This document shows, piece after piece, positions 43,010 to 48,507 of a stretch of DNA of 64,000 nucleotides. The position numbers and the translations under genes are program-made. Each line of letters begins with the position of its first letter. Position 1 is the first letter of the stretch. The stretch covers positions 64,001 to 128,000 of the forward strand of contig CM000155.2 of NCBI GenBank assembly GCA_000004695.1. Direction: 5' to 3'. Under the pieces are notes generated by a model. That model did not search any database and was not told the DNA's origin. It worked only from the letters and a program-made list of their open reading frames with translations. Source of the DNA: Dictyostelium discoideum (taxonomy: Eukaryota).

Positions 43010-46000
43010 TCAATAGAAAGTAGTTGTTGGTTGTATTTCTTCATTTATAAAAGGAAGTTCACTTCCATCAAGTTCAGCATGATCAAGTTCACTTTCATCG
43101 GGTTTACTTTTTTTGAGTTTACTTTGACCAGTTTTAGATTTAGAAAACTTTGCAAAATGACTGTCTATCAAGATTTGCACCATGCCATTACTTATTTCAG
43201 GTTGATATTCTTTATTTAATTTTCTTTTATTTCCATATAAATTACCATTTTCAAAACGGTCAAGTAATTCCAATTCTTTATTATTGCCATTATTATTATT
43301 ATTATTATTATTATTATTATTATTATTATTATTATTATTATTATTATTATTATTATTATTATTATTATTATTATCATCATTATTGATAGTATTATTAATT
43401 TTTTGATTTATTCTTTTTTTAATTTTTTCAACTATTTCATTACCAATTAAAACATCAATTTTGGAGTTTTCCTTTAATTCTTTTAAAATTTTACTATCTA
43501 ATAGATTATTCTAAATTTATAATAAATAAATAAAAAAAAAAAAAAAGAAAAGTATTAATAATTATTCTATTATTATTATTAATATATGATGTAGATATGA
43601 ATTATAATTACTTTTTCTAAAAGTTCTGCAAAGTTTTGGGATTGAATCTTTAATTTGGTAAAGCTTTCTATGACAGGGTTTTGTTTTAAATTTGAATTTT
43701 CAAACATTTTAAAATTGATAATGATGGATTTTTCAAATAGTTGATTTAAAGCATTCAAATGATTATTTAATTTTATTGCAAACTTTCCTAAACATTTTGA
43801 AAAGAAACTAATCAAAAAAAAAAAAAAAAAAATAATAAAAATAAAAATAAAAAAAAATAAAAATAAAAATAAAAATTATTACTAATTTAGTATTTCTTTT
43901 TTTTTTTTTTTTTTTTTTTAAATTATAATTTATAAGTAATACTTACTATTCTATTTCTTTTTCAGTGAAATTATTATAATTAATAATAGATTTTACTAAA
44001 GTGATAGTACATTCAAGTAATCCAAATAAGAAATCTGATTGATTGGAATTTTTAATATTACTATTGATATTATTTTTATCATTACTACTAAAAATATCAA
44101 TGAATTGAATTTCTGATATTAAACATAAATTACACTTTAAAAGCATTTTACCAATCTATATATATATATATATATAAAAATAGAAAAATAGAAATATTAA
44201 TATTATTATTATTTTGATTATTATTATTATTATAATTATTATTTATTATAATAAAATACAAACATTATTTGAATCATCAGAATTTATAAATTTATATTTT
44301 TCATGTTCAAAGTAATTAATAATTGATTTTTTTGAACAATATTTTGAAATGACAGATGATAATGAGTTTACAAATTCTTGAATGATAGTTAATAAACCAA
44401 ATGGATTATCATTTTTAAAATAAATGGTTTCGATTAAATCAAAGAATATATTATTATTTAATAAATTTAATGGACCATCACTATTTATAATTCTTTTATT
44501 ACAATCCATTAAGAAATCATTTGATTTAAATAAGATTTTACCATTACCATTAGCACCACCACCACCATTACCACCACTACTACCAATTGGTAAAAGGATA
44601 GTTGATATTAAATTTTGATTATTTGAAGTATAGGTTGTCTCTAATAAGCTATAATATAAAGAAGGTTCATCTAAATTAATTAATATATTCTCTCTATTAC
44701 AATAATCTGCCAATGATTTTATAATATCAACAATAAAATAGGATATGAATTTATCATCAGCACATTTAAATATTTTAATTAATGAATCTAAAACAAATTG
44801 ATATTTATCTGATTTATTTGATGATGATGATGATGATGATGATGATGATGATGATGATGATGATGATGATGATGATGATGATGATGATGATGATGATGAT
44901 GATGATGATGATGATGATGATGATGATGATGATGATGTTGTTGCTGTTGTTGCTTTTGTGTTTGAATTATCATTTTTATTAAAAATTAATAAAAAGTCAT
45001 CAAATAAATATTTATATGCATTTTTATTTGACTTTAATGACAAGTATTGAAAGATTCTAATTAATTGTAAACAATAAGATACAATTATTTGAGATTCAGA
45101 AAAAGAATCTATACTTAATTTACCATTTGAATATTTTCTTTTATTTCCATTCAATGTTCTAATTGAATCAATAAATGTGAATTTAATTAACCAACTTATA
45201 AAATTATCTTGTAAACAAATCTTTAATGGTAACACTATTGATAAACTTGAATATAGACTTAAGATTTCATTTGATTTCTCTTTACTAATTTTAATTTGAT
45301 TAAGAAATAATTCATTTAAATTATTTTTATTTGAATTACTATCATTAATTAATAATAGTAAAGAATTATGATTAATTAAAGTTTTAATTAAAAATAATAA
45401 TAATTCTTTTGAAGAAGTTAATTTATTTGAATCTAATGATGTTGAAATAATTGATGTTGTTAATGTTTCAATTGATAATGTTGATAATGCTTCATCAATT
45501 GATGGACTTTGAAAATCATAAGGATTATAATTTATTTCATATTCATTTTCTTCTTCTTCTTCTTCTTCTTCTTCTTCTTCTTCTTCTTCTTCTTCTTCTT
45601 CTTCTTCTTCTTCTTCTTCTTCTTCTTCTTCTTCTTCATCATTCTCATCATCTTCATCTTTTTCTTCTTTATCTTGTTCATCTTGTTCATCAATATTTGA
45701 ATAATTCGAACTACTTATAAAATGATATTCTAACTTTTCATTCAATTTATTGGCCAATAAATAAATATAAAATAAATTTGCTAATAAATTATCAATATTG
45801 GTATTATTATTTGAAATTATTGATAAAAGTTTAATTTCCCAATAAATATTATGAATTTCTTTTTCTAATAAAATTAATTCTTTTTTTGCTTTTTTTTTAT
45901 TGTTGATATTGATATTATTATTATTATTATTATTATTTTTCATATTAATTAAATATGGTTTTAATACATTTAAATCATTTAATGTATTTAAAATATGATT

Positions 46001-46985
46001 AGGTATTAATTCATTTAAAATATTTTTATCTAATCTACCAATATATAGTAAAAAACATTTTAATACTCTTGATAAATATTCCCAAACATCTTGTTTTTGT
46101 AATATATCTGAATTAAACATTTTTATATTTTTATTTTCCAAAGCATTATCATCATCATCATTATTATCATTACCATTATTAAATATTTCAAATGATTTAA
46201 TTAATGGTAATAAATAAAATGAAATTATAAATTCAATGTTAACTTTATTAAATAAATCTAAACTTGAAATTAAGAGATCCACTAAATAATAATTAATTGT
46301 TAAATCGTGTTTTTTTTTATTTGTATAACCCATAAAATCTACATAATCAAGCACTTCTTTTATAAAAGAAGTATCAATGTGATCATAAAAATGTGATAAA
46401 ACAATTGAGATATGAATTAGTTTTCTTTTATTCATTATTTTATCCTCTAGAGTTTTTATTTCATTTTCATTTTCATTTTCATTTTCATTTTCATTTTCAT
46501 TTTCATTTTCATTTTCATTTTCATTTTCATTTTCATTTTCATTTTCATTTTCACTCTCATTTTTATTTTCATTTTCATTTTCACTTTCACTCTCATTTTC
46601 ATTTTCATTTTCATTTTCATTTTCATTTTCACTTTCATTTTCATTTTCACTCTCATTTTCATTTTCATTTTCACTCTCATTTTCATTTTCATTTTCATTT
46701 TCATTTTCATTTTCATTTTCATTTTTTTTTTTGTCTTTTATTAATGATAATAATTTAAAACATCTTTTTAATATCACATCTATTACTGATTTTGTTTCAG
46801 TTTCTTTATTTATTTTTGCGTTTGATACTAGTTTTGGTTTTAAAATATCTGAAATCGCATGAATTTCATATGGATGATAAGAAGTTGATTGTATTAATAA
46901 AATATTTAAAAATCCTATAAATATTTCACCATTTTTACCATAGTCGCTACAATTTTTACCATTATAAGTAATTGGTAAACTAAAA
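43010..46985 (-). CDS. Large lineage-specific low-complexity protein (poly-S, poly-E, (NE)n from a GAAAAT hexamer array, poly-N); multi-exon, partial/provisional model
   Basis: A minus-strand frame stays open for about 2.74 kb (about 46985 down to 44246, in roughly 22% GC DNA). It is then linked to three downstream exons by clean introns: a GTAAGT donor after ...TEKEIE, GATTAG/ATATATAG acceptors, and a GTAATT donor after NFAELLEK. The approximate exon blocks are 46985..44250, 44150..43945, 43800..43612 and 43505..43010. Homopolymeric tracts are encoded by (GAT)41 as poly-Ser, (TTC)32 as poly-Glu, and (ATTTTC)44 as (Asn-Glu)n. There is no ATG before about 46390 in this frame, so the 5' end is probably spliced from the upstream ORFs (next feature). 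Confidence 0.5.
44816..44937. repeat. (GAT)n trinucleotide microsatellite, about 41 units; read as poly-Ser (TCA)n in the minus-strand coding frame
   Basis: Direct reading. Alternative frames give poly-His or poly-Ile, but the long ORF uses the Ser frame. Confidence 0.9.
46456..46722. repeat. Hexanucleotide (ATTTTC)n array on the + strand = (GAAAAT)n on the coding minus strand, about 44 units with a few C>T/A>G variants; translated as (Asn-Glu)n
   Basis: Direct reading shows cattttcattttc... with sporadic cactctc/cactttc variants. It lies inside the long open minus-strand frame of the low-complexity gene. Confidence 0.9.
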
Positions 46986-46991
46986 GGATTA

Positions 46992-48507
46992 TTAAATATT
47001 TATAGTTAAATCCCTTAATATTCCAAGTGATACCTTTGAAACTAATTGTATCTCTTTATTATTAGTATAACTATCATACATCTCATCCTCTTCCTCATAA
47101 TCATCTTTATTTACTAAATGTTGTAATAATATATTAATTAAAGTTTTTGGTGATGATTTAAATAAAGAAATTGACATTGAAGTTAACCATTTTTGAATTG
47201 TTGTAATTGTTTCTGAAGTTATTGGATTTTTTGGTGATGGTGATTTTTTATCTTTAGTTTCAGTTGTAGTATTATCATCACCATCTTGTTGTTGTTGTTG
47301 TTGTTGTTGTTGTTGTTGTTGTTGTTGTTGTTGTTGTTGTTGTTGTTGTTGTTGTTGTTGTTGTTGTTGCTGTGGTTGCTGTGGTTGTTGTTGTGGTTGT
47401 TGTTGTTGTTGATTTGTATGAGAAGTGAAATTGGTTGAAAAAGTTGTGGTAATAGATTCATTAAAGTTTTTAATCTTTTTAAAGAATTCAACAATTATAA
47501 AAGATAATGTTGATATTGATATTGAGTTATCAAGTCCATTTGATAATGATTCAAATGATAATAAATCTTTTGTAACTAATTTAATCAATAGGTCAATTGA
47601 AAAACTCTTAAAATCTATACCTTCTAATTTACTATTAATTTGATGTTGTTTCTCTATTAAATAATCAATTAATTTAAATATAAATTCAAAATGGTATCCC
47701 TTTATATTTTGTTTTTTATTTATTATTATTAAAATATAATTTAATACTTTATATATATATATATATATATATATATATATATTTGAAAATTAAATTAGTA
47801 ATTTATTATTATTATTATTTTTTATACTATTACATACATTTAGGGTTGAATTGAATTGAATTTTCAATTAGAATATCAATTAATCGATGAAGATGAATAT
47901 TATTATTATTTAATAATAAAATTTTATCAATTAATGATGCTATAGTTGTTAAACCTTGATTAGTACTTTCTTTTGATGTCTTTATAAATAATTTATAAAG
48001 ATCCAAGTCATTATAACTATTATCTTCATTTGTTGTTGTACTTGTTGTTGTACTTGTTGTATTTGGAGTTGATAATGATTCATGAACTAATTGATTAACA
48101 AAATTAGATTCTTCTTTAGGAATGAAAATTGATTTAAATGATAATGCTACATGATGAATAAGTTTTAGATCATTCATAAGTAATTTCTTTAATTCTGATA
48201 CAACCATTGAAAATTCTTGTGTGGTTGGATTAATTCCAACATAGTCCCAAATATATTTAATTATTATTCTTGGATTATTATAATGTTTTAAAAATTTAAT
48301 TATTAAATCAATGCTTTCATTAGATTGAATAGTTTTACTACTCCAGTACTTTAAAATTGAATCAACATATTCATCATTTAAATTTTCATTATTATTATTT
48401 TTATTATTTTTATTTTTATTTTTATTATTTTCAATTATTCTATCTAATAATTTATTTAATTGTTCTATATTATTATTTTTATTATCTTTAGTTTTATAAA
48501 GATCCAT
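46992..48507 (-). CDS. Hypothetical protein (poly-Q, N-rich), at least 2 exons; possibly the 5' part of the downstream low-complexity gene
   Basis: A real ATG at 48507 starts MDLYKTKDNK. Exon 1 runs to about 47850, where ...FNPK meets a perfect GTATGT donor. A second coding block (about 47745..46992) is encoded partly by (TTG)n read as poly-Gln. It reads ...IDYLIEKQHQINSKLEGIDFKSFSIDLLIKLVTKDLL...QQQQ...EEEDEMYDSY.... The annotated stop at 46992 may be bypassed by a GTATGA donor that joins to the 46985 ORF. Splice positions are not resolved. Confidence 0.4.

Follow-up and report, generated by a model that had tools for sequence, protein, structure and literature searches.

On the minus strand of a 64-kb stretch of Dictyostelium discoideum DNA (the whole of which is called the window below), positions 43010-48507 carry what is most probably one protein-coding gene of five true exons, with several long microsatellites lying in frame inside it. 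The intact allele of this gene would encode a protein of 1685 residues. The copy present in the window departs from that allele by an extra base at position 46998, which we attribute to the assembly, and the microsatellites would have expanded by replication slippage after the split from Dictyostelium purpureum. We put the probability of this explanation, taken as a whole, at about 85%. The coordinates of the gene, its repeat arrays and the other features discussed are collected in Table 1.

The coding nature of the locus is indicated first of all by the length of its main open reading frame. Between 46999 and 44249 the minus strand stays open for 917 codons. Shuffling the locus 200 times gave longest open frames of 61 codons on average and 107 at most; the composition-based probability of a 917-codon frame is about 1e-44. 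The first-pass annotation of this DNA had held that so long a frame is unlikely to arise by chance at 22% GC, and the conclusion stands, although the GC content of the locus is closer to 19% (that of the window is 24.5%). The four GT..AG introns that interrupt the gene have a GC content of 6-9%, versus 18-24% in the exons, and three of the junctions that had been predicted, near 44150, 43800 and 43505, proved right within 5-7 nt, the exons starting at 44155, 43807 and 43510. Further support comes from a second assembly (GCA_054883475.1, contig JBTAPE010000005.1, locus L001), which was reached via the single-exon Rrp4 gene and is 99.7% identical to the window. A gene is called there over the identical span, with a product of 1685 residues, in good agreement with an initial estimate of roughly 1700; since this coding sequence length includes every repeat tract, the suggestion that the locus is probably translated and that the tracts are coding rather than intronic is supported. 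Frame length relative to the shuffles, the low GC content of the introns, the match at 1685 residues and collinearity with an orthologue (see below) together lead us to regard the locus as a bona fide gene.

Table 1. Features of the 43010-48507 locus and its upstream spacer (window coordinates).
Feature	Position	Strand	Description
Whole gene	43010-48507	minus	ATG at 48507, TGA at 43010-43012; equals L001 4249-9745, 1685-residue product
Exon 1	47838-48507	minus	Residues 1-223 and first base of codon 224; conserved N-terminal block NPRIIIKYIWDYVGI...
Intron 1	47747-47837	minus	91 nt, GTATGT..AAAG, 7% GC, phase 1; D. purpureum intron at equal position and phase
Large exon	44264-47746	minus	One exon in the intact allele; window copy split into two frames by the extra base at 46998
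Intron	44156-44263	minus	108 nt, GTTTGT..ATAG, 6% GC, phase 0; position and phase common to D. purpureum
Small exon	43947-44155	minus	IGKMLLKCNL...TEKEIE; conserved in D. purpureum DNA, omitted from that species' annotation
Intron	43808-43946	minus	139 nt, GTAAGT..TTAG, 6% GC, phase 2; phase common to D. purpureum
Exon	43612-43807	minus	FFSKCLGKFAIKL...AELLEK; conserved in D. purpureum
Intron	43511-43611	minus	101 nt, GTAATT..TTAG, 9% GC, phase 0; no counterpart intron in D. purpureum
Last exon, including stop codon	43010-43510	minus	C-terminal PTTT(F/L)(Y/H) end common to D. purpureum
(CAA)n array	47286-47411	minus	TTG x42 on plus strand, 91% purity, perfect run 28; 42-residue Q/P tract, residues 336-377
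(GAAAAT)n hexamer array	46459-46725	minus	44.5 copies, 92% purity, longest perfect run 15.8 units; 88 residues of NE/SE/NK dipeptides
(GAA)n array	45548-45688	minus	TTC x47 on plus strand, 85% purity, perfect run 30 at 45548-45637; E31 within a 48-residue D/E-rich stretch
(TCA)n array	44819-44937	minus	TGA x39.7 on plus strand, 39.7 copies, 100% purity, perfect; S39
(AAT)n array, last exon	43278-43397	minus	~40 copies, 88% purity, perfect run 28.7; polyN
Extra base	46998	minus	Window AAATATTT, L001 AAAATTT; shifts the frame and creates a stop at 46994-46992
GT..AG stretch	46980-47079	minus	100 nt, splicing would restore the frame; 22% GC, exon-like
Pfam PF12090 Spt20_SEP match	46844-47699	minus	Residues 240-491 of the spliced model; polyQ tract inside; uncorroborated
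Intergenic spacer	48508-48762		255 bp, A/T-homopolymer-rich; between the gene and divergent Rrp4 (48763-49905, plus)

When the large exon was searched exhaustively with HMMER against 1.84 billion representatives, one real match came back (P0001, E 1e-31), the D. purpureum hypothetical protein DICPUDRAFT_155809. About 210 further matches fell on the low-complexity NE and polyE regions only. Once the D. purpureum protein is corrected (see below), the two proteins share 38% identity and are collinear throughout, from an N-terminal NPRIII..IWDY block to the C-terminal PTTT end, and three intron positions and phases are common to both species; the D. purpureum gene is unlike that of D. discoideum in lacking the five long tracts and the last intron. 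Both ends of our model, the start and stop codons, are backed by this end-to-end alignment, as are the two upstream exons and the small exons downstream. In particular, the N-terminal 225 residues are 41% identical to the orthologue, which supports the tentative assignment of the upstream exons, beginning at the ATG at 48507, to this gene.

The public model of DICPUDRAFT_155809 (L002 4508-8847, GL871203.1) is itself incomplete, at 1229 residues versus about 1361 after correction. Its acceptor after intron 1 is placed too distally, with a loss of about 57 conserved residues (LYDYLCLIKK...FFLV), and a conserved exon of 66 residues (LSRMFLQCNL...DSDLE) is omitted. Other searches for homologues were empty. 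With P0001 as query, a word-indexed homologue search returned only P0001 itself; the same kind of search with the repeat-deleted protein gave 8000 candidates, none of them significant, having probably been swamped by low-complexity words. Metagenome scans for more orthologues found none. Judging from these searches, relatives of the protein appear to occur in dictyostelids only.

Within the gene, the window and the second assembly differ at three positions only, 46866, 46998 and 47039, all inside 175 bp. The middle one is the extra base; the substitutions near it change V to E (46866) and T to S (47039). At all three sites the second assembly has the D. purpureum state, namely T460, V517 and an intact frame. 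Removal of the extra base makes what otherwise appear as exons 2 and 3 continuous, and with the remaining four introns spliced out and all tracts translated the product is exactly 1685 residues long. The clustering of three changes in an otherwise identical gene, together with the agreement between the second assembly and D. purpureum, implies that the patch in the window is derived or erroneous. Most likely, the extra base is an assembly error in a short patch of low quality. A second patch of disagreement lies at 55882-56021, where the window and the second assembly differ by 13 substitutions in 140 bp, mostly changes to A in an A-rich stretch; the occurrence of two such patches, there and at 46866-47039, suggests low-quality patches in one of the assemblies.

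The break in frame had originally been bridged by postulating a clean intron with its acceptor near 46985. A real 100-nt intron in this place, running from GTATGA at 47079 to TTTTAG at 46980, would restore the frame in vivo and yield a protein of 1652 residues. Its GT..AG ends are one of only seven combinations that do so free of stops, and the spliced model has the top score, 65.6 bits, with the Pfam profile Spt20_SEP considered below. However, the GC content of the stretch is far from the 6-9% of the four real introns, and in the second assembly the same stretch is unbroken coding sequence. It encodes MYDSYTNNKEIQLV(S/T)KVSLGILRDLTI, which aligns to ...NTSLAVGVLMDLLLSF of D. purpureum; the residues of the supposed intron (KVSLGILRDLTIKF) are conserved there, aligning with SLAVGVLMDLLLSF in one continuous frame. 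In addition, three spliced models were absent from a collection of 15 billion proteins by exact look-up, a search in which the 1685-residue reconstruction found no match either. Because its GC content is exon-like and its product conserved in D. purpureum, we read 46980-47079 as coding. On this evidence the stretch is not an intron and there is no splice site near 46985; that an intron is removed here in living cells strikes us as very improbable.

Two further ways of accommodating the break were considered and rejected. Programmed +1 frameshifting at 46998 would need a slippery or stop-stimulated context, which this site does not have, and a near-identical assembly carries the intact allele. 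Nor can the locus be divided into two separate genes at the stop at 46992, as the downstream frame reaches the NE array without an ATG, an A/T-rich intergenic spacer is lacking at this point and the orthologue is continuous.

A different possibility is that the sequenced strain truly carries the extra base as a mutation, which would truncate the protein after about residue 477 (...RDLTINI, then stop) or mark the gene as a young pseudogene. The window as given does contain a frameshift and an in-frame stop, and the two adjacent substitutions also change residues conserved in D. purpureum. Against this, all three changes are packed into 175 bp while the rest of the 5.5-kb gene is the same in both assemblies, a concentration that looks like a local low-quality patch rather than a set of independent mutations; outside it, over 21 kb, the comparison shows a single further substitution within an open reading frame and one further tight cluster of differences, and the 2.7 kb downstream of the stop are fully open and free of further lesions. 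We therefore consider a genuine mutation unlikely and retain an assembly error as the preferred explanation.

The repeats themselves were located with Tandem Repeats Finder and a scan for perfect runs across 43010-48507 of the minus strand. Besides the five long arrays of Table 1 the gene contains a sixth, short one, (AAT)8. The first-pass annotation had described four long perfect repeats in one 2.7-kb frame. The NE, E and S tracts do lie in that frame; the polyQ tract belongs to the frame upstream, not all of the arrays are perfect, the copy numbers given were slightly off, and the fifth tract, the polyN encoded by about 40 AAT units, had not been listed. The hexamer array (plus-strand unit TTTCAT, x44.5) was correctly recognized as about 44 in-frame copies; its 44 dipeptide units comprise about 37 NE, 6 SE and 1 NK. 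The interruptions of the array are conservative, replacing N by S or GAA by its synonym GAG, and the tracts as a group encode hydrophilic residues only (Q, N/E, E, S, N). All six are of equal length in the window and in the second assembly. Between the same two assemblies, intergenic homopolymer or A/T runs do differ in length, at 57436-57474, 41120-41127 and 42778-42804 (39 T, 8 A and 5-7 bases, respectively), in contrast to the gene, where no long triplet or hexamer array differs.

In the alignment with D. purpureum, the polyQ, NE, polyE, polyS and terminal polyN tracts all stand opposite gaps, and every one of them is flanked by conserved blocks. An acidic insertion of 65 residues, for instance, falls exactly between the conserved motifs NYS and PS(I/L)(D/E)EALSTLSI. 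Facing gaps and bracketed in this way, the tracts are lineage-specific insertions, and the purity of the arrays at the DNA level points to recent expansion by slippage. One can thus envision that the five long microsatellites and (AAT)8 expanded in frame by replication slippage after the two species had separated. The tracts would sit in linkers or loops between the conserved blocks, leaving a conserved helical core uninterrupted (the 1685-residue protein is predicted to be all alpha-helical), and such insertions would be tolerated, probably as near-neutral passengers. We infer this slippage origin, the location in loops and the neutrality from what is known of coding microsatellites in D. discoideum (PMC3460934, PMC9234386).

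It could be argued instead that the tracts are functional modules kept by selection, whether as prion-like or phase-separating segments, as flexible spacers or as evolvable "tuning knobs". Each repeat is used in hydrophilic reading frames only, the interruptions of the hexamer array are of the conservative kind described above, and Q/N tracts are enriched in regulatory proteins (PMC3460934, PMC9234386). Yet 0/5 tracts are found in the D. purpureum orthologue, and three of the arrays are perfect or nearly so in DNA, implying that they expanded recently. Selective maintenance seems to us quite improbable in comparison with tolerated slippage products.

The claim that the protein has no recognizable domain is formally contradicted by a match to Pfam PF12090, Spt20_SEP, the score of which exceeds the gathering cut-off of 27.1 bits; the match nonetheless found no corroboration in any of the independent checks made. 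Spt20/SUPT20H is a core subunit of the SAGA complex that carries the PF12090 domain and has been solved in structures 6T9I, 6TB4 and 7KTR; the SEP fold is of the alpha/beta type. Were the D. discoideum protein the dictyostelid orthologue of this subunit, a notion compatible with the gene model and tract history proposed above, its N-proximal SEP domain, with the polyQ tract inserted in it, would dock on Taf5 and the histone-fold core and serve as the anchor of Tra1 and the deubiquitinase module. The spliced model matches nearly the whole profile (positions 2-173/177, 65.6 bits, E 6e-18) and the true read-through sequence scores 45.7 bits, while no match is obtained with three shuffles or with the sequence reversed. 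Long relatives exist, such as the 1192-residue "Spt20-like SEP domain-containing protein" of PDB entry 9ynu, chain B (in that chain, the 60-residue SEP core alone matched yeast Spt20), and fungal Spt20 proteins also have low-complexity insertions inside the domain.

The scores, on the other hand, are well below those of yeast Spt20 (199.6 bits) and human SUPT20H (87.7 bits). The corrected D. purpureum region, 42% identical to that of D. discoideum, does not match Spt20_SEP at E<=10, either in full, as separate halves or with the insertion deleted. Over its C-terminal half, the D. discoideum match places a non-conserved, T/S/K-rich linker on a low-complexity part of the profile. Comparison by hhalign of the Dictyostelium pair with the SEP domains of human, S. 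cerevisiae and K. phaffii Spt20 taken from the PDB gave a probability of 0.04, in a setting of low sensitivity with 2-3 sequences per profile; phmmer and hmmsearch found no Spt20 among PDB sequences, and a word-indexed search with the SEP-like region found nothing. The AlphaFold2 model of this 250-residue region, built from a two-sequence alignment, is all-helical and without strands, unlike the alpha/beta SEP fold, although its confidence (predicted local distance difference test, pLDDT, 42.6) is too low for a verdict on the fold; confidence is also low for the similarly derived all-helical model of 732 residues of the C-terminal part (pLDDT 35.1), and Foldseek found nothing in the PDB with the low-confidence model. 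Finally, the artificially spliced model outscores the true sequence, as might be expected if an annotated copy of the protein itself had been used to train the profile. With the orthologue unmatched and the profile comparison with solved Spt20 empty, the Spt20 label is formally present but uncorroborated, and we view orthology with Spt20 as doubtful. In the fuller picture, a dictyostelid Spt20 more than twice the size of its yeast and human counterparts would hold a 42-residue polyQ tract in its SEP domain and would be extended at the C-terminus by about 1100 conserved helical residues found in dictyostelids only; this must be called unlikely.

Returning to the one-gene explanation, several points weigh against it. 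The gene model is a prediction from sequence. The neutrality of the tracts is something that we infer. The structure predictions are of low confidence (pLDDT 35 and 43), so that both "all-helical" and "loops" are weakly supported. Lastly, length polymorphism of the tracts is plausible from the literature, but tract lengths are the same in the sole second assembly, which at 99.7% identity is apparently of the same lineage.

The surroundings of the gene were identified through Pfam annotations on the second assembly. They include exportin-1/CRM1 (38439-41721, minus), the exosome subunit Rrp4 on the far side of the upstream spacer, and a ClpB/Hsp104-type AAA+ chaperone (52520-54838, plus). In the region of a mitochondrial-carrier gene, the minus strand at 50253-50834 contains an open frame with nine tandem TNKQ units encoded by a 12-nt repeat, which may be intronic or coding.

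Seen against the genome in which it resides, the gene is ordinary. The window contains 15 perfect triplet arrays of at least 10 units, and the presence among its further very long perfect arrays of (CAA)39 at 8973-9090, (TAA)51 at 10198-10351, (AAT)38 at 11925-12038 and (ATT)46 at 29102-29239 indicates that arrays of such size are routine. In D. discoideum, more than 10% of the genome consists of microsatellites. Exons contain about 3000 perfect triplet arrays with at least 20 units, and 18% of genes have two or more repeats (PMC3460934). Alternating-residue low-complexity regions have also been described for the proteome (PMC9234386), and the notion that dipeptide-encoding arrays are uncommon is not supported; NE-type arrays are found across many unrelated proteins, with matches to about 200 others in our library search. 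The arrays discussed here share with those of the known homopolymer-tract proteins (Eichinger et al. 2005, cited in PMC3460934 and PMC9234386) their in-frame, triplet-type organization in 30-45 units and the residues that they encode (N, Q, S, E or alternating residues), as well as the presence of several arrays per gene, the use of hydrophilic frames and the absence from orthologues. Their unit lengths are multiples of 3, they are in frame within a bona fide coding sequence, and they form lineage-specific insertions between conserved blocks. The one difference, that an array is a hexamer giving an NE dipeptide and not a homopolymer, touches nothing essential. Coding microsatellites stacked in this way are known as a hallmark of D. 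discoideum, and the protein is not of a new kind.

As such stacking is textbook for D. discoideum and public assemblies already list the gene as a hypothetical protein, the locus has little discovery value. Its interest is chiefly one of curation. The one-base discrepancy at 46998 mimics an intron and will shorten or split gene models built on the window sequence, and the public D. purpureum model is without two coding segments. The label "SPT20 homolog" should not be propagated without experimental support, since the orthologue fails to reproduce the match on which it is based. Should the protein nonetheless turn out to be a dictyostelid Spt20, it would point to a remodelled SAGA core in Amoebozoa.

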